In this document: positions 2,945 through 53,426 of the stretch, in pieces
Numbering within the stretch: position 1 is the stretch's first letter
Layout: each line of letters opens with the position of its first letter
Assembly (NCBI GenBank): GCA_965645245.1
Contig: OZ287074.1
Span: 2,170,001 to 2,234,000, forward strand
DNA length: 64,000 nt
Source: Massalongia carnosa
Lineage: Eukaryota
Direction: 5' to 3'
Position numbers and translations under genes: made by a program
The notes under the pieces: model-generated
Seen by the model: the letters and a program-made list of their open reading frames with translations, nothing else
The model's database searches: none
Told to the model about the DNA's origin: nothing

Positions 2945-5901
2945 TGTGGTGGGGCGACATGTGTCATCTGTGGTCAGGTGACATGGCAGGCCTGTGTGGG
3001 GATAAAACGGGTTTTTTGCTGGCGTTTTCTTCATCATCTCCGGACATCATCTTCTATCACCTACGCTGTCATCATCATCGTCGTGTCACGTAATCATCGA
3101 CACACGTTCATTTCGTGCATCAACTAGTCGTTCAGTCGTTCAGTCGTCGAGTTCTTTTCATGTCTATGCAGTCGTAGGTCCATTCAGACGTTTGTGTGTG
3201 TGTGTGTGTTCACTGCTCAGTTCGCCATCTATCATCACGTACCACCACCTTCCATTAGCACGCACGACTACCCTTCTTCATTGGCGACCACGGTGCGATA
3301 TATGATTGTACTGGTGCAATTGAGCGGTTGAACTGAGCATCAAACGTCGAAAAACCTCCTTGTTTTGCACCTCTGATCACTCTGACTACTCCACCTCCGA
3401 CCGTGCACGACCGAGTCCTTCAGCACCAAATCGAGCAACATGGCCCCCATCAGCTTCTTTACCACCGCTACCGCTTCCGTCACCATCCCAGCACCGACTG
3501 CATGCGTTTTAGACGTACATTCCAGGAACTATCTAATCATTCTATTCACTGCACTGATGGCCATGTCCTCGAGCATTACCTTCTGCATTTGGGCCAATGC
3601 GACCGTGTCCGAGAGTACTAGACCGACCTCACCTACTCCACTACCATCAAAACGAGCACGTCAACGACAGCGACACCATAATCGAGCGAAACGTGGTAGG
3701 CCTACTAAAAGAGCCTCCGTTTCTGCCTCCGAGTCGTCTGAGTCGTCAGAGTCGTTCGAGTCGTCCACTTCCACGTCCACCACTAGTGCACCAACCTCTA
3801 GCACTAGTGCATCTCCATCTACATCTTCATCTTTATCTGCTTCTTCTTCTTCACCCAGCGCACCTATGAGCAAGCGACAGCGACGTCATCTGCCGAGACA
3901 GCGCCGGTCCATCTCCGTGTCGAGGGCATCGTCTGTCAGTTCATCAGCACCGTCAGTGTCATCATCAACTGCCTCGGTTGCATCGACAAGGTCATACATG
4001 AGCATGGAGGAATTGTTTGCGAAATATGGGGCACAAAAGGCCCATGTGGTCCATACAAACTGTCCAGAATCGCTGTCTATTTGTCCAACAGTCGCCGTGT
4101 CACCACCGGTCACTATGTCTGCACCATCTGCACCGTCTGCACCGTTCATGTCTGCACCGTCCACCGCACCAACGTCACCCGTCACCGCTTTTCGTTCTGC
4201 CGTGTCTTCGGCACCTGTCATCACCGCTATCGAGTCAGCTGACACTGAGTCAGCAATTGAGTCATCTACACGTGGGCCGGAAGGGCCAAAATCAGCAATT
4301 TTACGTTCAGCACCTGGTTCTAGCACTGAGCTAGCGCGGGCCGAGGAAAGGCCGACCACTGAGTCCGCTGCGTCTACTGCGTCTACTGTCACTGCGTCTG
4401 CTGACACTGAGTCAGTCATTGAGTCATCAAAAAAGGGGCCGGAAAGGCCAAAATCAACATCATTTCATTCAGCCTCTGAGGTCAATGTGGAGCTAGCTAT
4501 GGCCGGACGCCTTCCGGACGTCAGCTACGTCGAAATTGACGACTATATAGCACCTTCCCGTTCATTATCACCATTGCGTTCAGCATCACCGTCCCCTTCA
4601 GCGTCATCATTCGTTCATTCAGTGGCCTTCGTTTCGTCAAATATCGAAGAATATCTGTCTACTTTGCCTCTCATTCAGTCATCTATCTCCCGTCAGGCAC
4701 TAGGATTTTTATATTTGCAGGCCTCCACCTGGATAGTTCCTATGTGTCGACTGTCCAGTCTTCCCCTTTCGGACGCCCTATGTCAACTAGCAGGTGCTGA
4801 TAACACGAAAATATTGCTGCACACTGTCGTGGGTCGAGAGATTTTGACCGAATTGCTGACGAAAGTGAAAGAAATTGTCGCACGGTCAAGTTCATCTTCA
4901 GCTAGTGCCACCGTGTCAGCCAATCGAGTGAGGTCGTTTCCACCTTCATGTAGGTCAGGGCCATGGCAGTCAGACCGAGCTAGGCACGCACGGGCTAGAC
5001 GTGCAAAACGTACGCGCTGGACACTACCTGCACCTCCGGCTTCATATTGTTCCACTCCATTTGACAGGCCCGGCCTATCTAATCAGTCAGCGTCAGCACC
5101 AGCACCGTCAGCACCTCCGTCGTTATCATCAGCCCTACCAGCTGCACCACCGGTTGATGCCTTGCCATTACCTGAAACGGTCACGTCGTCAACATTTGAG
5201 GCCTATCGGGCGAGCGGTGCGTTCATTCCGCCTCAGGCTAACTCCATGCAGTCGTCCGGATCACCGTCAACAGACCCATCAGTCAGTCAACAACGATTTA
5301 TTCAGTTCGTGTCCACCCCCGAGGGCTGGCAGGCAATAGTGACGATGATGGAGGCTATTCAGCAGCGGATAGGGGTCGATGTGAGTCGTCTTTTTCACAT
5401 GTGAAGTGATCATGTGAGCTGTGATTGGCCCGCAGGGCAGACTAGTGAGGCGGACAGACTAGAGGCGAGGCGAGGGCTCAGAGACGAGTTCTGATTGGTC
5501 AGGAGAGGTGAGCTGGCGAAGTGTTGACAGATGCCAGGGGACGGCATCTTTGGGGTGTGAGGCTATGTGGTGGGGCGACATGTGTCATCTATGGTCAGGT
5601 GACATGGCAGGCCTGTGTGGGGATAAAACGGGTTTTTTGCTGACGTTTTCTTCATCATCTCCGGACATCATCTTCTATCACCTACGCTGTCATCATCATC
5701 GTCGTGTCACGTAATCATCGACACACGTTCATTTCGTGCATCAACTAGTCGTTCAGTCGTTCAGTCGTCGAGTTCTTTTCATGTCTATGCAGTCGTAGGT
5801 CCATTCAGACGTTTGTGTGTGTGTGTGTGTTCACTGCTCAGTTCGCCATCTATCATCACGTACCACCACCTTCCATTAGCACGCACGACTACCCTTCTTC
5901 A
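2945..5901 (+). mobile_element. Non-autonomous LTR element with 336-bp near-identical LTRs (2945-3280, 5566-5901)
   Basis: LTRs TGTGGTGGGG...CTTCTTCA differ at about 2 positions; PBS-like TGGCGACCACGG directly after the 5' LTR; no gag or pol motifs inside. Confidence 0.8.
3440..5404 (+). CDS. Ser/Ala/Pro-rich 654-aa orphan protein carried by the LTR element
   Basis: Uninterrupted 654-codon ORF filling the interior; hydrophobic N-terminal stretch; internal duplicated motif SADTESxIESSxxGPExPKS; no recognisable domain. Confidence 0.5.
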   Translation: MAPISFFTTATASVTIPAPTACVLDVHSRNYLIILFTALMAMSSSITFCIWANATVSESTRPTSPTPLPSKRARQRQRHHNRAKRGRPTKRASVSASESSESSESFESSTSTSTTSAPTSSTSASPSTSSSLSASSSSPSAPMSKRQRRHLPRQRRSISVSRASSVSSSAPSVSSSTASVASTRSYMSMEELFAKYGAQKAHVVHTNCPESLSICPTVAVSPPVTMSAPSAPSAPFMSAPSTAPTSPVTAFRSAVSSAPVITAIESADTESAIESSTRGPEGPKSAILRSAPGSSTELARAEERPTTESAASTASTVTASADTESVIESSKKGPERPKSTSFHSASEVNVELAMAGRLPDVSYVEIDDYIAPSRSLSPLRSASPSPSASSFVHSVAFVSSNIEEYLSTLPLIQSSISRQALGFLYLQASTWIVPMCRLSSLPLSDALCQLAGADNTKILLHTVVGREILTELLTKVKEIVARSSSSSASATVSANRVRSFPPSCRSGPWQSDRARHARARRAKRTRWTLPAPPASYCSTPFDRPGLSNQSASAPAPSAPPSLSSALPAAPPVDALPLPETVTSSTFEAYRASGAFIPPQANSMQSSGSPSTDPSVSQQRFIQFVSTPEGWQAIVTMMEAIQQRIGVDVSRLFHM

Positions 5902-6868: not shown

Positions 6869-8102
6869 ATGTCAATTATGGATAGTTTCGAGACATCACG
6901 AATATTAGGTTCTTCGGCATCTAACTCGGCTCAAAGCAGAGCGGCTATGCAGAACGAGGAAAATCCGGCTCACATCCAAGACACTAGGCAGCGCAAGAAA
7001 GTTCAGAATCGCATAGCCCAGCGAACCTACCGCGAGTCTTTCGAGAAAACGCTCACCTGGGAGGCTTTTAGCTAATTCTGTGTGGCAGGTAAAAGAATCA
7101 AGTCTCGAATGGAAGCGCTGGAACGCTTTCGAGAAGCCTCTACGGCACAAATGTCACCATCGGACATTAGCTCCCCAGAGTTCAACCCTCCAACAGAACC
7201 GGAGAGCCATTCTTTTCAGCCCATGCCCTCTCCGGCCATTTCAACGCCCTCCTCTCTACATCATTCGTACTGCTTACAAGACCAAGGTAATGTTACCAAA
7301 TGCTCTGCTTCGTTGTCGTCTTCGGAGAGAGACGACAGTCTTGCTTCTTCGTTCCAGACACATCCCGAACATATTATCCCTACGGTTACACCATCACTGG
7401 ATACGGCTCTGTCTTTCAAGCCGCAGAACAACCGAACCGATCATGGCTTGTGGAATTTCAGCCAAGCAGTCAACATTGGACTTAATGTGGAAGGCATCAA
7501 TGAGCCGCGAGACGCTGAGTACCACAACCCGCCCGAATGGCCACCCTCAGATCTCATAAAAGAGGTAAGAATGGCTAATACAATCACGACTACGATCCAA
7601 TGCTGCCTGACTCTATATATTGCTCCCAACGTCCTGCGCTAACGTATAACTACTCAAGTTCGCCAGGGATATGTACCTTCCTGACACCCCCCAGATCCAG
7701 GATAGCAAAACCGCTCTGCACATGGCCGCCGAGAAAGGTAAAACGTCGACGGTGCAGCTCCTCCTTAGTCTGCAGCCCGATATTCTGGCACAGGATGGAA
7801 GGGGCCGCACGGCGCTCCATCTCGCCGTGTTCAACCAGCACCAAGATGTCATCCAAGAGCTTGTCAAACGGCCGATCTGTCTGGAGGTCCAAGATCAGGG
7901 CGGGCAAACAGCATTGCATGTCGCGGCTGCCCACGGACACGAACGTGCCGTAGCCTGCCTACTTGCCGCGGGTGCAGATCTCGAATGCAAGGATGCGAGA
8001 GGCCATACTGCCTTTCATCTGGCTGCGGCAAACGGACGGGACAACATTCTCCGATTATTGTTCAATCGAGGAGCTGATATCAATGCCAAGATCAAACTAT
8101 AA
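6869..8102 (+). CDS. bZIP-basic-region plus ankyrin-repeat (bANK, TOXE/Aps2-like) pathway-specific transcription factor; 3 or more exons
   Basis: [27 protein letters not shown] basic region; C-terminal ankyrin repeats ([34 protein letters not shown]); introns 7032-7088 (GC-AG) and about 7565-7694. Confidence 0.85.
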
Positions 8103-8714: not shown

Positions 8715-10849
8715 TCACATCGGAACTGCTGGCGCCATTTTCACACGCTACTCACAATTGGTTAATCGCTCAAAAAGTTCCTTGAAGTACTTACTCGAAG
8801 TCCTAGAGAAGCAATCACTCCCAAAGCTGCGGCTGCATAGACTGGAATGAACCTGTAATGATTCTCGTCAGAGAGGTTGAGTATTTAGTAATTTGAGAGA
8901 TGTGCCTTACACTTTGGAAAGAGATTCCACTATGATTGCGAGCGCTTGGGTCTTTTGATCTTTGCCTAATGTTGAGAGAAAGTCGCCGCTTAATCCTAGT
9001 AAAGCAGCCTGGAGTTCGGCGCGGGGACGATCGACAAGAAGCACTTCGAGTCCACTCAAGGCGCGATTTATGAAAACAGCTCCGGAAATAGAGAGTGCTA
9101 GCGCTACGCTCAGAAGTTGGGCTACGGGGTTTGGGTTAGTATGGATGAGAAGGGCCTTTCGGAAAGAACAAGGGTATTGTGTCGCTTACCAACCATTATG
9201 AAACTCAGACCAAATGTCACCAACTCAGGTCTGGTGAGGGTCTGAATCACCGCGAATGCAGCTTGCATGCCGCAGCCGGACCCAATGCCGAGTAGGACCT
9301 CATATCCATATATAGTACCGGTTGAGGTAGTGGCGTCGATGCGAGCTAAGATTATCAGAATGCGGTTGGATCTGAGGGAACACTGGGACCCACAGAACAA
9401 TACGCCTGCAACTAAAGTCAGGATACTTCCCACTAAGAACCATGGCATGTAGTATCCGCCGTTAGACAATGTTCCACTATTCACAAGGATGAGAAAGGTG
9501 ATGAAGACGATGAGAGGCAGCAGTCTGATTGCAGACTCTAGTGGTGCATCACCACGGGTAAATTGGAAATAAGTTGGAATGAAGTAAATCGGAATGAAGC
9601 CGGCCGAGTTAAAGGTTGCCGTTAAGATGAAGAGGAGAAGAGCTTCTTTGATTTGCAGGAAGGCGACTGGGAACAAGCGAGCCCTCTCACTCGTCAGAAG
9701 GGCGAAATATTGTTGCACCACAAACACCGTGAATAGTACCCCCGAGAGTCCGAAGAGGACGATAATCTGGGCGCTATTCCAGCTGAAAAGGGTACCGCCA
9801 AAATTTATAGCCATAACCAGGCAGACTAGAGATCCTATGCTAAGGACTATGCCAACGCCATCGAGGTTGCGAAGGCGTGAAGGGATGCTTTGAGATTGCT
9901 GAGGCTTGAAACTTGGAATCAGGAACAGATAGACTGGGCTCAAGAGTCCGATGATGCAGAGGTTCACGTAGAAGCCCCAGCGCCATGTGGCCTTCGAGTC
10001 GGCAAAAGCACCTCCAACCACGGGTCCGACAACGTTGCCGATACCGAACGTTAATCCCCTTATCGAGGTCAGCTTCGTATCGGCCGTAAAAGAATGCTTG
10101 TTACTTACACCAGGCCCAGATAAATTGGACGCTCAGTGGAACTTGTGTTGACAGATAACAACGTCATTACCCCGAGGTAGGTCCCGATTCCGCCCACACC
10201 CGCGATAACACGTCCGACAATGAACGCGTTGAGATTGGGCGCAGCGGCGCATAGAGCAGATCCGACCGAGAACGTAACAACGGAACCAATGTAGAGCTTT
10301 TTGGTGTCGAAGAGGGCATACGTACTGCCGAAGGGAAGAACGAAGCTGACCCCCCCGATCATGAAACTGAAAGATGTGTCAACGAGAGTGTCTAAGTTAA
10401 GTTGACAAGGAACACTTACGCGACAGAAAGCCATGGAAGTTTGTCCGCACCGCCGAAATCTCTGACGATGACCTGTACATTGCCTGTCAGATCCTAGGAT
10501 TTGTCTCCTGCTCCTTCTTATGGATAAGGCTCATACCGGAATGACGTCGGCGGTTATGGTGTTGTCGAGGGCGTACAGGAATACGCTGGAGAGGATAGCC
10601 AGCACGGCAAGGATCCACTCAAGTTGTGCATTTCCCATGTCAGTAAAGCAATAAGCGAGGGGAACGAGACGTTTGAGAAAGACGATCGCTCACCCGCTTT
10701 CCCGTAAGTTTTCGGACTAGAGGGCTCACGTGATCCCGAAGAGATTCATGGTCGTGCGGAGGCATACTTTCTTCTCTTTCTTCGTTTGCCTCTTTTTCTT
10801 CTCGAACGGGTGAATCGTTCTCGCGCCGGGTGAGTCTGTGAATCTCCAT
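8715..10849 (-). CDS. MFS drug/toxin efflux pump (DHA2-type, TOXA/AflT-like); multi-exon
   Basis: GSALCAAAPNLNAFIVGRVIAGVGG, GPVVGGAF...WRWGFYVNL and YIPxYFQFxRG-type motifs; many hydrophobic helices; several canonical introns; last exon RVKMAPAVPM*. Confidence 0.9.
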
Positions 10850-11778
10850 GTTGGTTGTAGTAGAACAAGGGGGAGTCCGATCAGTCTTGTAGAGCAAACA
10901 ATCGATGTGAGGAAAGCCGATGAGGCATTTAAGTGATAGCTAGCGGGGGCAAGTGTTGATTGTTGATCATCTATCGGGGCAGGACTAAGGATCCAACCAC
11001 TGTGCGAGTGCTTGTGCGACTGATAGTGCAAACGCGTGATAGTAATGGGATTGAGATTATCAAGCAAATCGCAAATCCATCGAGTCATCCATTAATTCCC
11101 CACCAGCCAAGCTCTACCCTATCGTCTTTCGTACCTTTGGTAACTTAAACCAAAACGCTGTATTATACAATACGGTACGCGCCTCTGCAGCCGAAGGCTG
11201 GGTACGTGTTTTTGGATATTATTAATTCATTTTAAACCCATATTAAACGTTTCGAAAACGTGCTTTTATCGCGCGATGCATACATTCAGATCTTCAACCG
11301 CTACGAGTTCTGTAGTAGACTTGATGAACGAGACCTGTCACCCCCGATGATTTGATGCTATATTACGTGAGAATAATACAGGTTAGGCACGTGTAGACGC
11401 ATGGAGGGTACACGGATATGCAGTGTTGCGCAGGGTCCACGGGTTCGCTGTTACTGTGCTCTGCATGCAGACTTCTATGCTCCCTCTGCTCTCCGTAGGT
11501 AATACAGTGGAGTTGGCAGGCCCGATTGGCCGGGAAAACCAAGGTGCAGTCGGTGATATTAATAGATCTAGGTAAGTGATGCTGGTCTGGGTCGAGACAT
11601 GCCTGATTGATGACCACCGACGAAACTTCAGTCAGATCTTTCATGGAGAGGCAGTTCCAGCCCTTCGGAACGTCATCTATATGATGGACTTTCTGCCTGT
11701 AGAGGACGGACAACAAATTAGAGAACAAAGCAGACCTTTCTTCGGACGTCTGACAGAAGTTGCCCGAGTGCTACCGCG

Positions 11779-13325
11779 ATGACTCAACCAGCAGTCAACA
11801 GCGATGCCGTCGCCCACCATGCTAGCCCCGCATATGTGATTGAGGATCGTCTCTTTGTCAACAACGAGTTCGTGTCCTCCAAATCCGGCCTCAGGCTCGA
11901 TGTCTATAACCCTACGACGGAAAAGGTGTGCGCTTCAGTGTATGAGGCTACCGAGGAGGATGTCGACATAGCAGTCAACGCTGCCAAAGCCGCATTCCCA
12001 GCCTGGTCGAATTTGAATGCCCAGGACAGAGGCCATTACTTGGAAAAATGGGCTGATGCCTTGGAAAGGGCTCTCCCAGAGATGGCGTATCTGGACGCCA
12101 TCAGCATGGGCAAACCTGCATACCCAGATCGTGAGCTGACCTTTCTTTCGGGAAGGACAATGGCAAGGGACACTAACTCACGGTCACAGGACTGGCACCC
12201 ATAATTTTGAACATCGTTCGGTTTTTTGCTGCCAAGGCATTGGACGTGACCGGTGAATCGTCTTTAAACACGGCAAATTTTGTCAACATCAGCATTCGGC
12301 AACCGTATGGGGTATGTGGGGCCATTACTCCTCGGCACGCTCCCGTCGTGGTAATGGCCTACAAAGTTTCGGCTGCTCTGATCACGGGCAACACCCTGGT
12401 CCTGAAATCATCGGAGAAGGCACCTCTCAGTAGCCTCGTGGCCGCCCGTTGTGCAAAGGAGGCAGGTATCCCACCGGGTGTCTTGAACGTCCTCAGTGGC
12501 TCCGGAAAGCCTTGCGGAGAGGCCATTGCAAGACACATGGAAATCCGCAAGCTTTCGTTTACAGGGTCGACGTCGGCAGGACGGGCCGTTCAAAAGGCGG
12601 CGGCCGAATCAAACCTGAAAAATGTGACCCTGGAGTTGGCTGGAAAGAGTCCATTGATCGTTTTCGAGGATGCTGACCTGTCGAAAGCAGTGCCTTCAGC
12701 CTCCATGTCGATTCTGGTAAATTCTGGGCAGATGAGCAATGCCAGCTCGAGGATCTACGTTCACGAGGCAGTTGCCGAGAACTTCATTGAGAGCATGAAG
12801 GTCACGATGACCCTTATGGGGGAGAGCGCGGACCCGTTAGCTGAAGGCACCCGAAGAGGACCGCAGGCAGACAAGGTACATTTTGAGAGGGTCCTATCAT
12901 ATCTGGCGCTGGCGCAGCAGTCTGGCATTCAAGCGCCGCTAGGTGGTGGGCGAGAAGGTTCCGAGGGATATTTTATCGAGCCCACTATTCTCATAGACGT
13001 TCCGGAAGACTCGAAGGTTATGAAGGACGTGATCTTTGGTCCCGTCGTAATCATCAACACCTTCACTGACGAGGATGACGTGATGAAGAGAGCGAATGAT
13101 TCCGAGTATGGATTGTATGCCAGTGTCTTCACGAGGGATATTTCACGTGCTCTATGCACTGCTAAGCGGCTTGAGGCTGGGAGTGTCGGAATTAACTGCA
13201 CAAGCCCAACAATGGCGATGGACATGCCCTTTGGCGGGTGGAAGGGAAGTGGGTCGGGCAGGGAGTTTAGCAGGTACGCGACTGACTACTGGACCGAGCT
13301 GAAGTCGGTGTACATCGCGTTGTAA
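11779..13325 (+). CDS. Aldehyde-dehydrogenase-fold protein with substituted catalytic residues; one intron at about 12131-12189
   Basis: LFVNNEFV, LKSSEKAPLS, SFTGST, LELAGKSP, FIEPTI and PFGGWKGSGSGRE motifs; but PWN>PRH, GQxC>GQMS and EEIFGP>DVIFGP. Confidence 0.9.
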
Positions 13326-13976
13326 TGGTCGACCAGAACTGCTCAAAAAGCAGCAGTGTCAGCTGGCCTAGTCCTGTGTTTTAAGTATTGCACAGACCGA
13401 TTGGTTTGATCTCCAATCGAAGCTTCCATTCTGAGCCACAACTTCTAGAAGGCCTTCAACGTGGATGAGGTGAAAGTCATGAGTTTGCCCATAGCCGATA
13501 CTCAGTTTAACACTCAGCGACTTAGCTCCGGCAGTGACCCCTATGCTAAAATTTGGGTCATCTGATGCAGTAAAAGTCCCTCTCATCGGTAACATGGCTG
13601 GTAGGTAATCATGCATATCAAATTTCACGTCATCATCAATTCACTTTGTCTGTCATTTAAACCTGCACTGTTCTGTAACTACAATGCATACTGATATGAT
13701 TGTTGTATTAATGGCTATAGCTTCAGTAATTATCTATGTGGGCTATCTATCTGCTTTTATAGCAGTCACATAGCAGCCACATAATAGTGATGGTGTAGGC
13801 CTCTCATAGCTACCTATTAGGCACTTTTATAGGTTGCTTGACAGGCACCCGAGGGACTCACGAAGGATGCCTTTACTGGTGATCGACTGACCATCTAACA
13901 AGGTTCTTAGCACCAGTCATGTCAACAATGACGTTGAGGTGATGACGCCAACCACAGAGACTTTAGGGGTCATGGA

Positions 13977-15141
13977 TTAGTCGAGTAGCCTCGGAGTCAT
14001 GAGATTTTTCAGGTAATCGTCCGCAATCTGGACTCGATTCCCCTGGAATCTGACAACATGCTCTTGAATGGCATCCGTGAGGATGGTTTTGAGATCTTCT
14101 GTAGTTAGCTCCTTGGCTTGAAAGCCGCGTTCAATATCCTGAAGTGCTTGATCATTTTCCACGAAAAAACGCAGGTATTGGAGCATTAGGGTTATGTCCA
14201 TTCCCATACCCAGGTGGGTTGGGAAAGCAAGCTGAAGCTTAACGCGAATCGTCGATGGATCGTCTGTCAGGAAGATGGCCGAATCGTGGATTGAAGCCGA
14301 CATTTTCGACTGAGCACCTTGGAGTGCGGGTAGGAGGCTCGAATACAAAAACGCCGGCTTATGGTACCCCAATTTTTCTGCGTGTTTGCGAACTTCGCTG
14401 AAGTATCCGTCGATGTCGTATGAGCAAGCAATCAAGCAAGACATTGATTTTAATTGATGCTGGCTCGTTCCGAGGATTCCGGGGAAAGATGTGGCGAACG
14501 CGCCCGCAGATTGAGTCGAACAACAGTAAAACTTCCCGACATTATCATCGTCGTCGAAGTCGAGCGTGTTCTTGATGTTCTTTATCGAAATGTGTCTCGC
14601 TATACCAACGATATTTTCGTAAAAGGCACCCCCGACGAAGTCGAGATTTGAGAAGATGAAGGTTTTCTTGGGATTGAAGCCAAATGCGAGAATGTCTTTT
14701 GCGTTATCTATGTCAAAGCGTCTGACGTCTTGAAATGTGAGATCTTTGGAATGAAGCAGTTTCATGTCATCAGTGAGCATGATAATAAGAGGAGCCTGGA
14801 ACACATCTTGCAGCCATCTAAGATGCGTCAACAGGTGATATGGACAGTCAGTCGAGTCTGACGTAGGCTTACTTGGTAAATTCGAATGGAATGGAGTGTC
14901 CAATGTGCAGACTGTCGCTGCTTGGACCCCTTCCAGTGAACAGATAAAACGGCAGTCCACGCTCATACTTGTCTAGAATGCCATCCAAGCCGTGGTGGCA
15001 GAAGACTATGCCTCTTCGCAGGTACCTATGAGGTATATGACCCGTCACTCTTTCAAAGCGTTTGAGTATCTTTGTGTCGATATGACTTGCATCGGTCTCG
15101 CGGATGAATTCGTTCAAATTGTCCTCTGTAACGGTATTCAT
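13977..15141 (-). CDS. Divergent cytosolic-type tryptophanyl-tRNA synthetase paralog (exons 15141-14873 and 14817-13977)
   Basis: LRRGIVFCH, FYLFTGRGPSSDSLHIGHSIPFEFTK|WLQDVF, NAKDILAFGF..KTFIFS, PALQGAQSKMSAS, AIFLTD and MTPRLL motifs; GT-AG intron 14818-14872 restores FTKWLQ. Confidence 0.92.
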
Positions 15142-15728
15142 GATCAGTGTTGTAGTAATAACCGTACTGTTGATGTCATAACACGATATTCCACTTTCTG
15201 AATGACTCTAAGCTAAGATCATATAATAATCTCAATATCACATATTTTCGAGTGATTTGAAATCGAATAGGACAACTCTTCACTGATTTATCGTGGTCTT
15301 TGAATCTTGAAAGAGTAATTGATACAAGTTGTTAAACAACGTAATAATAACTCATAATATGTAGTAATAAATGCATCGTAATAATTATTCAAATAATAAC
15401 TGCGCGAATTACACATGCGAAATTATTGAAATTAAAGTATAAAGTATTGACTTGTAATATTTCCAATTACTCGTATCCTGTTTATTAAACCTTAACTAGT
15501 CGATATTAAATATAACCGTAAACATAAGTTAATCGATCTAAAAAATGTATTCTATAAATCAAGATCAAAATTTTTAAATTTGCTTTATAATAATAAATTT
15601 CATTTTGATATAGTATCAGGCAGAGAACGCTACGTAAGATTCGAGTCAAATCAAACTCGTTAGCGAATTAAAAAACATGTAAAACTCAATAAGTTGACTT
15701 GGAAAATCAATAACGGATAAATACGTTT

Positions 15729-30998: not shown

Positions 30999-32869
30999 AT
31001 GATGACGAGGCTCTGCAATCTCCCAGTTCTGGCGACTTGGGCGGGCCTTGCATTAGCCTATCCATCTGGTGACAATCTGGCAACTCGCAATTCTTCAAGC
31101 TGCGTTCGTTGATCTCTGGCTGCTTTGATGAACATTATTAACAGCTAAAATGTTTTTTTAAACAGTGTGAAATACTCGACGAACGATTCCCGCTTCAAGT
31201 CAATGCAGTTGGCGAGAAAAATTACACAAATTATGATGACCAATTCTGGTGTATGTGACCGGGTTTAAACATCTCTTCTCTTCATCGATGCATGACTGAG
31301 CAAGTACCCCAAGCTTCGTCCGCGGTCCGTTCCCCGAAATGCATCTTTGCACCCCTTTACGCCGAGGAAGTGTCGACAGCAGTCGCACTTTTCAAATCCC
31401 ACCAATGCAAGTTTGCCGTTAGAGGCGGTGGCCATTCCGCTGTGCCTGGCGCCGCAAACATAGACGATGGCATATTGATCACGTTTGCCAACATGAAGAA
31501 CATCAGCCTTCATACCGATACAACCGGAGTCGAGTACGTGTCGATCCAGCCAGGTGCCGTCTGGGGCGATGTATACAAATTTACCGATCAGTTTTCGAAA
31601 GTCCCTGCTTGTGGTCGCTTTTATCCGGTTGGCACGGGGCTCGCCCTTGGGGCAGGCTTTTCTTTCCTAGCCAACGACGTCGGATTCACCGTGGATAATG
31701 TGAAGAGCTATCAGATGGTCCTTGCCGATGGATCCTTAATAGAAGTGAACCAAACGGATAACAGCGACCTCTTTCGCGCCCAAAAAGGGGGCGGCGATAA
31801 TTTCGGTGTCATTACCCGCTACGATCTGTTGGTGTACCCGGGAGGGCCCATCGTGGGCGGCCTCATCGTGGCTCCGGAGAATCAGACGGAAAAATGGCTC
31901 GATCAGACGTATGACTATAGCGTCCGTCAGGCGGTGCAGGATGTTAAAACGCACGCGTTGCCCGCGATTGCTTACATTGCGTCGAAGAATCTGGTGTTTT
32001 CCGAAACCGTTGTCTACTACAATGAGCATAACAGCAGCGTCCTGCCACCCATCATGTCCGGCTGGAACGAGCTAACCGGAAGCACTAGCACGGTACGACA
32101 AGCATCCTATGCCTCGCTCGCTCAGGAATATGCAGTAGGGTTCAACAATGGGCTCTTGTACGTTTTCTTCTTTCGCATCTTGTTTCCATGCCCGATTTTT
32201 AATGACCGTGCTAATGTGAACATGAGCCTTTAGCCAGGAGCAGCGGGTCTATACCATCAAAGCCAACCGAGAGGAATCTGCATACGCATGGTACAGTTTC
32301 CTATCGTGGGCCCGGTCCATCGGGAACGTCGATGGTTTCAATATCCTGCATTGCAACATGCCGATGATGCCAAGGATGATGGAAGCCGGAGTCGCAAAGG
32401 GATCCAACTCCCTTGGCCTAGCTAGTACAAAGGAGACCCTCACCAGTAAGTCGGCTTCGCAAATCATCTAAAAATTCCTGTCTCGCTATATCTCGATGCT
32501 CTCAATAGAAGATTTCCGGTTCATTGATACTAATCTAGTCTTGTATTTCGGCATCACGCTAGACAAGCGCGACGATGAAATCGTCAAGTCATTCCGGGCG
32601 CTCTTCAACCATCTCCAGTCGCATTCCACGTCGAAAGATCTCCTGCATCGTTACATGTTAGTCCTTCCTGATCAGGCCTTCCTCTTCTCAAATTCGCTTT
32701 AGACATATGAAGTCTGACAGATTTCAGAATGTGGAATTATGCCGGTGTGGGCCAAGAGGTTCTTCGCAGCTATGGCGCTGCTTCGAACACGTTCATGCAG
32801 CGAGTAAGGACCCGTTACGATCCTACGGGCGTATTTGCGCGACTTGTACCAGGAGGATTCAAATTGTAA
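30999..32869 (+). CDS. Secreted FAD-linked oxidoreductase (BBE-like, FAD_binding_4); multi-exon
   Basis: Signal-peptide-like N-terminus; FAVRGGGHS flavinylation motif; GAVWGDVY; DLFRAQKGGGDNFGVITRYDL; C-terminal WNYA...YDPTGVFARLVPGGFKL*. Confidence 0.88.
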
Positions 32870-49191: not shown

Positions 49192-52100
49192 TCATACCTG
49201 GCACAGGTAAGCCGCTTGATGCATCTCTTCGGCCTCGTTCATCTTGCCTTGATTTCTATACAGAATTCCTAGATTGTTGACTGTGTCGAGCGCTGATGTG
49301 TGATCAGGACCCCAGGCTTTTTCCTTTCCTGTCAATGCGATACATCTCTTCGGCCTCGTTCATCTTGCCTTGATCTGCATACAGACTTCCTAGATTGTTG
49401 ACTGTGTCGAGGGTTGATGTGTGATCAGGACCCCAGGCCTTTTCCTTTCCTGTCAATGCCCGCAGATACATCTCTTCGGCCTCGTTCATCTTGCCTTGAT
49501 CTGCATACAGACTTCCTAGATTGTTGACTGTGTCGAGCGTTGATGTGTGATCAGGACCCCAGGCTTTTTCCTTTCCTGTCAATGCGATACATCTCTTCGG
49601 CCTCGTTCATCTTGCCTTGATCTGCATACAAAAGCCCTAGATTGTTGACTGTGTTGAGCGTTGATGTGTGATCAGGACCCCAGGCCTTTTCGTATCCTGT
49701 CAATGCCCGCAGACACATCTCTTCGGCCTCGTTCATCTTGCCTTGATCTGCATACAAAATCCCTAGATTGTTGACTGTGTCGAGCGTTGATGTGTGATCA
49801 GGACCCCAGGCCTTTTCCTTTCCTGTCAATGCCCGCAGATACATCTCTTCGGCCTCGTTCATCTTGCCTTGATCTGCATACAAAAGCCCTAGATTGTTGA
49901 CTGTGTTGAGCGTTGATGTGTGATCAGGACCCCAGGCCTTTTCGTATCCTGTCAATGCCCGCAGATACATCTCTTCGGCCTGGTTCATCTTGCCTTGATT
50001 TTTATACAGAATTCCTAGATTGTAGACTGTGTTGAGCGTTGATGTGTGATCAGGACCCCAGGCCTTTTCCTTTCCTGTCAATGCCCGCAGATACATCTCT
50101 TCGGCCTCGTTCATCTTGCCTTGATTTTTATACAGAATTCCTAGATTGTTGACTGTGTTGAGCGTTGATGTGTGATCAGGACCCCAGGCCTTTTCGTATC
50201 CTGTCAATGCCCGCAGATACATCTCTTCGGCCTCGTTCATCTTGCCTTGATCTGCATACAAAATCCCTAGATTGTTGACTGTGTTGAGCGTTGATGTGTG
50301 ATCAGGACCCCAGGCCTTTTCGTATCCTGTCAATGCCCGCAGATACATCTCTTCGGCCTCGTTCATCTTGCCTTGATTTTTATACAGAATTCCTAGATTG
50401 TTGACTGTGTTGAGCGTTGATGTGTGATCAGGACCCCAGGCCTTTTCGTATCCTGTCAATGCCCGCAGATACATCTCTTCGACCTCGTTCATCTTGCCTT
50501 GATCTGCATACAAAAGCCCTAGATTGTTGACTGTGTTGAGCGTTGATGTGTGATCAGGACCCCAGGCCTTTTCGTATCCTGTCAATGCCCGCAGATACAT
50601 CTCTTCGGCCTCGTTCATCTTGCCTTGATCTGCATACAAAAGCCCTAGATTGTTGACTGTGTCGAGCGTTGATGTGTGATCAGGACCTCTGGCCTTTTCG
50701 TATCCTGTCAATGCCCGCAGATACATTTCTTTGGCCTCTTTCAGCTTGCCTTGTTCTTTTAAAAAATAGCCAATAGCATAATACGAAAAATATAATACCT
50801 GTTCCCATCTCATGTTCCTTTCGAGGTTTTGAGGTTTTTTTCCAATCCAGAAGTGAACATAACTACAATGACCAGCCAGTCGTTTTCGATGCAGCCAGTT
50901 TGCTGAACTGTCAGTGGAATGACATGCGGAACCGATTACAGAAACTGCTAAAGAAGCTATCTCGTCGTTAGAGGTTAGATTCAAGTGAAAACACCAGTCA
51001 TGTATAATTGGATGAATCGCATAAGATGAGATCTCATATCGTGTTTCTATCAAGGAGTAATCCAGCAGTATTTGAATCTTCTGTGTAAAATCAAATTCCG
51101 TCTTCATGCTACATGAATACCAGATAGGTAATGTCTCTTTTGAGATAATGCTTTCGTCAAGTACAGGTGTGAATAAAGAATACCATAAATCTGAATGATC
51201 GAGATATGCAAACAGATTAAGCAATTTTGCAGCGCTCGCGTCATTGCGTTGCACATATTCATAGGAAATGGTGTACGTAGATAAAATGCTACGAGGATAA
51301 TCTTTTAGTCGGGTCGTTTTGTTGTTGTGAAGCTTCTCCCAAGTCTCTTCATAGTATCGAATATAGTCGTTCACACTTGTAGTCGTTCCGTGGATATAGG
51401 AGCCTGCATGAGCAAGTGCAAGTGGGAGACCACCCACTTTCTCGACGATCCTATCAAGGCCTATATAATGCTTAGTAAATTGGATTAAGACTGTTGCTCG
51501 AATTTCATTACCTTCAACTAATCGTCCTATCCTGCATCGTAATACTTCTACTCCTTGTAGATCGCTCATCCTTCCAAGTTGCCGGTCCTGCCCGTGTTGT
51601 CGAAGCTGTCGTAATCGGCTTGTGATTAAAATAGAGCCATGATCGGCTTCCGGGAAAAAATCTTCCACATCATATGATTGAGGATCATTTACCTCAGGGG
51701 AACTATCACGATCGACATTATCGAAAATGAGAAGCCATTGATTGTTTTCATGTTGACTGAACCAAATAAGAATATTGCTAATGATTTCATCTAGCTCTTC
51801 AGGTGTTTTAGAGAATTTTCTACATGAATCCGGAATCTGATCTGGGGGTAATTGCCGAGCAATCTGTGCAAGACTTTGACGTACACTTTCCTTACTATCG
51901 CCTTTTAGCCAAAAAATAGAACTGAAAATCTTCTGTGATCTTTGAGCGAACTCGATTGCTAGCTGAGTCTTGCCGGAGCCGCCCAGTCCGTGCAAAACGA
52001 ACACCTTCCGGCGAGTCTCACGAGTTGGCTTGGGAAAAAGGGTATTCTTAAGGTCATTCATTTCCTGATCACGAGCTATGAATTTGGGTACACGGGGTAA

Positions 52101-53232
52101 GCCTTTCAAACTGAACGTCACTTTATATGAACCACTGTCTATTCAAGGATTTAGTAACTCAAGAATTATCAAGCAAACATTGACGCACATTCTCGTGTTG
52201 AAAGATTATTTCCACAAAGCTTCATTTGTTTCATCACGCTTTCCAAAGCCACATAGCGGGTTGTGGCGGCCATGATCTTGTTCTTCTGTGCTGCATCTTC
52301 GAGTCCAATACTCTCAAGCCCATGAGAAACATTGAAACGAAAGTAGCGATTCCCATCGTCGAGATCGGAATGCGCTCGATGAAAAGACTCCGCTGTTTTT
52401 TCTGTCTCTGTTGCAATGTCTTTCAACGTTTTTGCAATCTCGAAGAGGCTTGAGCCATAAGAATCCAAGGATGGAACACCGGTACCGATAGATATCAGGC
52501 ATTTGATGTTTCCCTCAAGCGCTTCATCTGACCACACACTTCTGGCCTCGTTCCAAAGCTGTGCGACAGGATTGTTAGCCCCCACAGCCCCATCGACAAA
52601 CTCTTCTTCAAACTGGCCAATTTTAACTGGATCGAAGAAGGATGATGCGGCAGATGTGGCTCGAGCTGCCTCCCAAATATGTGTCTTATGGTACATATCT
52701 GATGATCCTCGAGAAGGATACGATGTGAAAAGGACTGTGTCGGCAGTCTCTTTGCTCAGAGCGCATACAAATCTAGCTTTCATTAGTATCACTAGAATTA
52801 TACGTGTAAATGCAACTTCCGAAGCACTAACACCTTGCATTGCTGATTCTCTGATCCTTTGAGGAGAGCATTTTCCCCTGCCTTCTCCTTCCGCTTTACG
52901 ATTTCTCGAATCGACCGTTCCAGCTCTTCCGTGTCGAATCTCCCCTGCACGTGTCCGTTTATTGTGACACGATGCCGCTTTTTTTTAAACACTTGATCGA
53001 ACAATGCGACATAGGCATCAATACATTCATCGATATTCATCTCAAGACGACCTAGCATGATAGCAATCAATCCACCGGTACTTGTCCCTCCGATCATGTC
53101 GAAATACTCGCATGGCTTCGGCGGCGCATCCGGATTGATGATCTCCATCAGTCGCTTGAGGATTGCGAGTGACGATAGCCCTCGCACTCCACCGCCATCA
53201 AGAGATAATAGGCATAAATCTTTGTCTGGCAT
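49192..53232 (-). CDS. NLR-like protein with patatin-like phospholipase, NB-ARC and TPR repeats (PLP-1-like); reading frame ends early at 49551
   Basis: LSLDGGGVRG, GTSTGG and DGA patatin motifs; P-loop GLGGSGKT; WLLIFDNVD, ILITSR, GGLPLAL; 42-aa TPR units; three predicted introns. Confidence 0.9.
49200..50760 (-). repeat. Array of about 12-13 near-identical 126-bp TPR-coding units
   Basis: Unit NNLGxLYxxQGKMNEAEEMYLRALTGxEKAWGPDHTSTLxTV repeated with very few DNA differences. Confidence 0.95.
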
Positions 53233-53426
53233 GATAGAAGGTCCTAGCTTTCTTCGAATTATACAACTAGCCTGGTAGGAATGTGCAGAGGCTAGCTTTG
53301 GAAATGAGTGGTATAGAAAGCATCAGTCAAGCTGTTATTGTTGCGCGGCTGAATGATATCCATATAAGGCTGAAAACGTCAAGCCCAGGCTTAATAAACA
53401 GTTACTAACTACTGTCATCCAGGGTG

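Follow-up and report, generated by a model that had tools for sequence, protein, structure and literature searches.

The window is the whole stretch of 64,000 nucleotides of Massalongia carnosa DNA that we analyzed. Table 1 lists the genes discussed here together with the altered and retained sites of the one that concerns us most, which encodes a protein with the fold of an aldehyde dehydrogenase (ALDH). Its score for Pfam Aldedh is 404 bits against a cut-off of 23, which places it within the ALDH superfamily by fold. The two exons (11779-12130 and 12190-13325) join into a frame of 495 aa with one intron and no internal stops, and an earlier note on this DNA was right that no stops or frameshifts remain after splicing. 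The signs by which a pseudogene is usually recognized (stops, frameshifts, or broken splice sites) are absent: the 495-codon frame is open and the intron is GT-AG.

Table 1. Features of the locus. Coordinates are positions in the window unless a contig is named; homologue counts are covering rows among the best 119 listed non-self matches to ALDH exon 2, out of 7553 matches in all.
Feature	Position	Strand	Support
ICS, DIT1_PvcA, 397 aa, open	G000:C8:2151586-2152926		E=6e-51
bZIP-like/ankyrin transcription factor, 360 aa, 2 introns, open frame	6869..8102	+	Pfam: ankyrins only
MFS transporter, divergent from ALDH, ends approximate	8815..10750	-	Pfam MFS_1; syntenic homologue in L020
ALDH exon 1, residues 1-117	11779..12130	+	Pfam Aldedh E=2.7e-19
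Intron, 59 nt, GT-AG, predicted, CTAAC branch-like site	12131..12189	+	splicing makes the product colinear with homologues
ALDH exon 2 (remaining NAD domain, catalytic and oligomerization domains, stop)	12190..13325	+	Pfam Aldedh E=1e-120
W168R and N169H in TPRHAP (codons CGG, CAC)	12333..12338	+	homologues W 107/107, N 107/107
K192 to E195, adenosine-ribose contacts, retained	12405..12416	+	roles: PMC8160307 section 7
E268 general base, retained; G270A in ELAGK (GCT, 12639)	12633..12641	+	homologues G 119/119
C302S, catalytic nucleophile gone, GQMSNASSR, codon AGC	12735..12737	+	homologues C 118/118; reads X1-X3 identical
Q349H, nicotinamide-half contact gone	12879..12881	+	homologues Q 118/118; role PMC8160307
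E399V in DVIFGP, nicotinamide-half Glu gone, codon GTG	13029..13031	+	homologues E 119/119
TrpRS-like gene, 369 aa, intron 14818-14872, intact, clade-typical	13977..15141	-	clade alignment

A cluster around an isocyanide synthase

The gene set comprises an isocyanide synthase (ICS), a DAO-like oxidase, a TrpRS-like protein, an MFS transporter, a bZIP-ankyrin factor, a GMC oxidoreductase, an ADH, and the ALDH. Fungal ICS clusters are recognized by a DIT1_PvcA backbone gene with co-located tailoring and transport genes, and all of these are found here. Like the xan, crm, and dit clusters (Nickles et al. 2023), this one has a mono-domain DIT1_PvcA backbone, an MFS transporter, and oxidoreductases. 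The ICS, the DAO-family FAD oxidase, the GMC oxidoreductase, and the zinc ADH lie left of the window (G000:C8:2134731-2152926; loci L018, L013, and L014), and the ICS gene is about 29 kb from the ALDH gene, across transposon-type sequence. This left half is about 24 kb from the block that holds the transcription factor, MFS, ALDH, and TrpRS-like genes, and the sequence in between is mostly transposon-type or unassigned. Another 8.5 kb or so separates the GMC and DAO genes. The frames of the ICS, transcription factor, TrpRS-like, and DAO-like genes are open, and the GMC oxidoreductase, which has a signal-peptide-like start, matches its homologues without stops; for the ADH, we relied on inspecting the sequence by eye.

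In a metagenome locus (L020), homologues of the transcription factor, TrpRS-like, MFS, GMC, DAO, and ICS genes are contiguous, along with a short-chain dehydrogenase, and the homologue of the bZIP-like/ankyrin factor adjoins the TrpRS-like gene. There is no ALDH gene in the 17.5 kb of L020 that we examined, out of 29 kb. Our metagenome scan gave two loci, neither showing an ALDH, and the ESM Atlas gave ordinary ALDH clusters only.

Several other features of the region deserve mention. The transcription factor is one that we take to be of the bZIP type from its basic region, and its first intron apparently starts with GC instead of GT. A word with an ACGT core, TCT(C/T)ACGT, occurs upstream of the ADH, GMC, ALDH/MFS, and TrpRS-like genes (including 11361-11372 and 15630-15640) and of two genes in L020 (near 6175 and 16530); it is possibly a site for the cluster's factor, with no clear enrichment. 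Between the two halves of the cluster are two near-identical inverted copies of a 670-aa, low-complexity open reading frame rich in Ser, Ala, and Pro (3386-5404 on the + strand of the window and L015:6812-8805 on the - strand), and neither has a match in Pfam. Among the transposons to the right of the cluster are genes for a cytochrome P450 (21244-22674, - strand) and an FAD_binding_4 oxidase (31259-32233, + strand); we saw no counterparts of these in L020, so their membership in the cluster is doubtful. Farther along is an NLR-like gene (49551-53322, - strand), which presumably consists of patatin-like pieces, then an NTPase-like part, then long near-identical TPR-like repeats. Finally, a short high-copy repeat (13726-13814, at 50-240 times the depth of its flanks) sits between the 3' ends of the ALDH and TrpRS-like genes and is probably a remnant of a small non-autonomous element.

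Active-site residues of the ALDH

We number residues as in ALDH1/2, via an alignment to sheep ALDH1A1 (5abm). The four motifs to which the earlier note drew attention (GQMSNASSR, TPRHAP, DVIFGP, and ELAGK) are all present and map to C302, W168/N169, E399, and G270, and the alignment bears out its claim that the general-base Glu (E268) is kept. In the PWN motif of ordinary ALDHs, Asn169 belongs to the oxyanion hole and W168 is the Trp before it. We found further changes that the note had not listed: Q349H, R441C, F/Y224S, and positions in the substrate channel, of which 124, 173, 174, and 296 have smaller residues. The pocket has lost one acid and gained an Arg and two His. The lining of the adenine pocket is altered too (224, 248, 249, and 253), so the retention of that half of the cofactor site is not clean. 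Outside the pocket, near-invariant sites are broken by R441C and I27V. K192, E195, T244, F401, L427, F465, and E476 are retained, as is E268.

If we ask which residues of an active ALDH the protein has, then Glu268 and the pair Lys192 and Glu195 are in place, while Cys302 is Ser, Asn169 is His, and two of the three residues Gln349, Glu399, and Phe401 are replaced (they are His, Val, and Phe). Judging from these residues, the protein is without the dehydrogenase machinery. Could it still be a dehydrogenase, with altered residues or another cofactor? It does retain the fold, E268, K192, E195, and F401, and, as far as section 6 of PMC8160307 goes, substitution of E399 by itself merely shifts the rate-limiting step. 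Against this, the nucleophile is gone; with Met at 301 and Asn at 303, no adjacent Cys could replace C302; N169, Q349, W168, and G270 are lost as well; and C302S alone leaves human ALDH2 with 0.3% of its dehydrogenase activity and 0.03-0.4% of its esterase activity (PMC2740413, seen in part). We consider a remaining dehydrogenase very unlikely.

A predicted model of the protein (pLDDT 82) has the three-domain ALDH fold, and Foldseek aligns it to ALDH1/2-type structures with TM scores of 0.85-0.88, although an alignment of canonical relatives went into the model, which is therefore blind to point changes and is weak evidence for the fold. One of these structures, engineered human ALDH2 C302S (PDB 1NZW; TM 0.88), has the same exchange of Cys for Ser and was solved with NADH bound, whereas our protein has five more pocket changes and an altered substrate channel.

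The sequence itself appears to be sound. An assembly or sequencing error might be suspected, as this variant is a singleton among the matches listed and two of the read contigs that support it (X1 and X2) may be the window's own source. X1, X2, and X3, which represent two samples of one study, cover the full ALDH gene with no other letters. X3 comes from the other sample, and X4, from a separate study (depth 5.8-7.5), covers 11881-12723 and 12938-13355, again with no other letters; this takes in four of the six pocket sites, with C302S and Q349H outside. The agreement of X1-X4 rules out sequencing error as the cause, and we would be astonished if any error lay behind these changes.

Orthologues, neighbors, and a sister fragment

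With exon 2 as the query there were 7553 matches, and we analyzed the best 119 of these, excluding the query itself. Every covering row has the ancestral residue at all six sites: W168, N169, G270, C302, Q349, and E399 (Table 1). The top match, at 80% identity, is from Lepidopterella. In all five of the named fungi that we checked, the top ALDH match and the homologue of the TrpRS-like gene have consecutive accessions. These ALDHs (Lepidopterella OCK74766, Cucurbitaria KAF1844288, Aspergillus heteromorphus PWY73027, A. ellipticus PYH98637, and Clohesyomyces ORY08598; there is also one from Metarhizium) have the six canonical residues, of which our protein has none. The five are direct orthologues: they are 71-80% identical over exon 2, they adjoin the same TrpRS-like gene, and they form one clade with the query. 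So the query ALDH descends from a canonical ALDH of a fungal ICS cluster (ICS, DAO-like oxidase, TrpRS-like protein, and MFS). We found no biochemical characterization of these ALDHs in the literature that we searched.

Because the syntenic orthologues are canonical, the change is confined to one lineage, and we saw no other carrier of it among the 120 full-length and 120 short matches listed. The earlier note had proposed an alignment to see whether Ser, Arg-His, and Val are conserved in cluster-associated copies; they are absent from all five, and a conserved cluster-associated variant is ruled out. The same note took orthologues that keep Cys, Asn, and Glu to mean lineage-specific decay or sequencing error, which equates "lineage-specific" with "decay or error." The orthologues do keep these residues (5 of 5), yet the reads exclude error and, as we argue below, decay is unlikely. 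Nor has the organism lost its ALDHs altogether. A loose pattern scan, in which some matches are due to chance, found nine other ALDH-family loci in this genome, all with a match to the Cys motif, and three of these (L002, L003, and L005) match all four ALDH motif patterns. This contradicts a genome-wide loss of ALDH capacity.

The TrpRS-like neighbor tells a different story. The earlier note saw a parallel between its remodeling and that of the ALDH, but the remodeling is common to the whole clade, beside canonical ALDHs, and the copy in this genome breaks just 1 of the 68 columns that are invariant in the clade. Contig C6 carries a more canonical TrpRS homologue. As the clade alignment has it, the remodeling is ancient. 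Since it coexists with normal ALDHs, there is no parallel, and co-evolution of the two genes is ruled out. We aligned the TrpRS-like proteins to human TrpRS through a near relative (P0366). The clade retains HIGH, KMSAS, K200, and D312 and has replaced Y159, Q194, E199, and Q313, by which the human enzyme recognizes Trp through its indole and its alpha-amino group (PMC2275098, seen in part). In other words, residues for ATP and the carboxylate are kept; the family also lacks a stretch of 12 residues in the C-terminal (anticodon-binding) part. This would fit a free-standing enzyme that adenylates an isocyano acid, comparable to the A domain in ICS-NRPS fusions. As a side note, several species of Aspergillus section Fumigati (P0206, P0212, P0221, and others) appear to have a second TrpRS paralogue (416-446 aa) besides the 433-aa enzyme.

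Table S4 of PMC10153163, as far as we examined it, lists similar clusters. ICS, DAO, TrpRS, and ALDH occur together, as a contiguous set, in Lepidopterella, Cucurbitaria, A. heteromorphus, A. ellipticus, and Metarhizium album; M. album also has an ADH. Four of the five named orthologues are inside these clusters; the portion examined did not contain the Clohesyomyces accessions. None of the five clusters with a canonical ALDH lists a GMC oxidoreductase, whereas our cluster has one. Pseudocercospora fuligena has ICS, DAO, GMC, MFS, and TrpRS and no ALDH, and Fusarium poae and Talaromyces rugulosus have ICS and TrpRS without DAO and ALDH. The two other clusters that we saw with a GMC (L020 and P. 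fuligena) show no ALDH. Only in the M. carnosa genome did we see both genes, and there the ALDH is disarmed. This pattern comes from seven related clusters whose borders were set automatically. It probably reflects a fork in an uncharacterized isocyanide pathway, with ALDH-type clusters on one side and GMC/ADH-type clusters on the other. In the same parts of the source, TrpRS-like genes have ICS genes as neighbors in Fusarium, Metarhizium, Aspergillus, Talaromyces, and Dothideomycetes. There are 28 rows with tRNA-synt_1b, although the two with strong scores are probably housekeeping neighbors. The main text of that paper does not contain the words tRNA, aldehyde, GMC, or ankyrin, and the parts examined assign no product to clusters with ICS and a TrpRS-like gene. 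Our literature search, which mostly did not reach subscription papers, found nothing relevant on this cluster or on a fungal ALDH pseudoenzyme.

A search among shorter proteins found a sister of the query ALDH, the fragment P0252 (tree support 95/94, with 29% of columns filled). We infer that it lies on the same contig as a TrpRS-like record that is 76% identical to ours; among the 11 closest TrpRS-like records, this broken protein is the only ALDH match that can be linked to any. P0252 looks frameshifted, since its N-terminal end aligns with a different reading frame of the query gene, and its damage is scattered (for example L427S, G474D, and E476D). It retains E399 and R441, so E399V and R441C both arose in the query after the split. 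Over 121 shared residues there were 4 changes on the query's branch and 15 on that of P0252 (p = 0.02, or p = 0.08 without the 3 of the 15 that are also in P0006). Given the apparent frameshift and the 4 versus 15 changes, P0252, unlike the query, resembles a pseudogene in decay.

Decay, new chemistry, or a binding role

Is the query nevertheless an early pseudogene? The ALDH may be dispensable in this sub-clade and decaying, and the open frame and the bias toward the pocket would then be accidental or left over from an earlier role. The broken sister fits with this, as do the singleton status of the variant among the matches listed, the apparent lack of an ALDH in the P. fuligena cluster and the visible part of L020, the transposon-type frames that break up the cluster, and R441C, a change outside the pocket that arose after the split from P0252. 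Also, each of the six pocket changes is one base away from the canonical codon, if we have the ancestral codons right.

The distribution of the changes argues otherwise. In the 119 homologues, 68 columns of exon 2 are invariant, and the query breaks six of them, all in the pocket: 6 of 21 pocket columns versus 0 of 47 others (Fisher p = 5e-4), with a pocket list that was set after the changes had been seen and that goes beyond the residues named in reviews (W168, G270, and the channel). If the pocket is limited to residues named in the parts of PMC8160307 and PMC12041015 that we examined, then the counts are 4 of 8 versus 2 of 60 (p = 1.2e-3). With a threshold of 98% conservation, 6 of 22 pocket columns and 1 of 77 others are broken, the one being R441C. 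When each homologue is left out in turn, 118 of 119 break no pocket column. Similarly, residues unseen in 12 clade members occupy 15 of 45 ligand-site positions of the query and 16 of 332 other positions (p = 1e-7); the ligand-site ones include 124, 127, 174, 296, and 301 in the channel and 224, 248, 249, and 253 in the adenine lining. None of the 12 clade members has this bias (all p > 0.2).

Under a neutral model of point mutation, which uses the query's own codons as proxies and ignores indels, the best joint probability is 1.3-2.5e-5 (about 2e-5). Drift sufficient to change six pocket codons should also hit some 14 invariant codons elsewhere and introduce 5.5-8 stops; there are no stops. 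A pseudogene should accumulate substitutions that are blind to structural conservation, and this gene does not, as none of the 47 invariant columns outside the pocket is altered. Its sequence is identical wherever runs from the two studies cover it. There is also no RIP-like dinucleotide signature (TpA/ApT 0.51), which removes RIP damage as a cause. The finding was picked from a very large scan, and this should be kept in mind in reading these statistics. Overall, plain decay of this gene seems unlikely, and we still give an early pseudogene some weight.

Because the changes are clustered on the active site beyond what random decay would give, a retained role other than dehydrogenation is the best reading. 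This much of the earlier note's proposal of neofunctionalization survives; as a conserved feature of the cluster it does not, given five canonical orthologues. The conservation statistics point to purifying selection on a fold whose catalytic residues are gone, as would be expected of a pseudoenzyme. As for the pocket, the same pattern would be expected whether it has fallen out of use and drifted or has been positively selected for a new ligand.

The second of these might mean new chemistry: Ser302, His169, and the retained Glu268 could form an NAD-independent site for hydrolysis or acyl transfer, such as accepting an acyl group from the adenylate made by the TrpRS-like enzyme or cleaving an ester or formamide of an isocyanide product. 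The changes conserve shape, a His has been added beside the Ser, and E268, K192, and E195 remain. The smaller residues in the channel (124, 173, 174, and 296) and the exchange of an acid for R/H/H also speak for it. In addition, 6 of 11 invariant columns in the nicotinamide half of the cofactor site are changed, versus 0 of 11 in the adenosine half (p = 0.006, with a partly approximate division into halves), but the adenosine-half columns are mostly Gly, Pro, or core residues, so this contrast is confounded, and the lining there has drifted too. Drift of an unused pocket would account for all of this, and in ALDH2 the C302S change abolishes the esterase activity as well. We judge new chemistry of this general kind to be decidedly unlikely. 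A specific version, in which the former cofactor cleft would bind an adenylate and the enzyme would take or hydrolyze an acyl group that its TrpRS-like neighbor has activated, seems a little more doubtful again. The TrpRS-like enzyme occurs beside canonical ALDHs or none, so it needs no such partner.

What we favor, with somewhat better than even confidence, is a lineage-specific ALDH pseudoenzyme: the oxidation step would have become dispensable, and the folded protein would have been kept as a binder or scaffold for a reactive intermediate. In the ancestral pathway, the DAO-like oxidase would turn an ICS-derived isocyanide or amine into an aldehyde, the ALDH would oxidize the aldehyde to an acid, and the TrpRS-like enzyme would adenylate an acid, which fits the residues that it has kept and replaced. 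In this branch, the GMC oxidoreductase and the ADH may handle the aldehyde/alcohol pair, so that irreversible oxidation would no longer be needed or might even be harmful. Relatives would have deleted or frameshifted their ALDH, while the M. carnosa lineage would have removed catalysis from a folded protein that remained under selection. The disarmed ALDH would then keep the reactive intermediate bound or pass it on, or act as a scaffold. We lean tentatively toward a non-covalent binder or carrier of a reactive aldehyde or isocyanide; otherwise, it may be a scaffold or regulator for another protein of the cluster. Some findings count against the pseudoenzyme: the variant is a singleton among the matches listed, the sister P0252 retains E399, and close relatives seem to manage without an ALDH gene.

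The closest known analogue is vertebrate ALDH16A1, which also has the ALDH fold without the catalytic Cys, is inactive, and has been proposed to have a binding or regulatory role (PMC12041015; PMC8160307, section 6; both seen in part). In vertebrate ALDH16, all three residues of the triad are absent, there is an extra C-terminal PutA-like domain, and the protein is conserved across vertebrates (PMC12041015). In contrast, the query keeps E268 and has no such domain, as it stops at residue 495 just where its orthologues do; it belongs to a fungal ALDH1/2-like clade and is found in a single lineage. These differences imply an independent origin, and membership in ALDH16 is ruled out.

In any case, the annotation "aldehyde dehydrogenase" is wrong for this gene. 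If it proves to be only an early pseudogene, then the lasting value of this work is the cluster with ICS and the TrpRS-like gene, and the TrpRS-like family is perhaps of more interest than the ALDH. If the new chemistry were true, it would be a natural switch from a Cys dehydrogenase to a Ser hydrolase or transferase, just a few substitutions from its ancestor. Most of what is known of ALDH pseudoenzymes comes from vertebrate ALDH16, an old protein whose function is obscure. The one described here would be recent, at 80% identity to a canonical orthologue, and it lies in a defined biosynthetic cluster, so a change from catalysis to binding (or to a new reaction) could be studied by comparing the two side by side.
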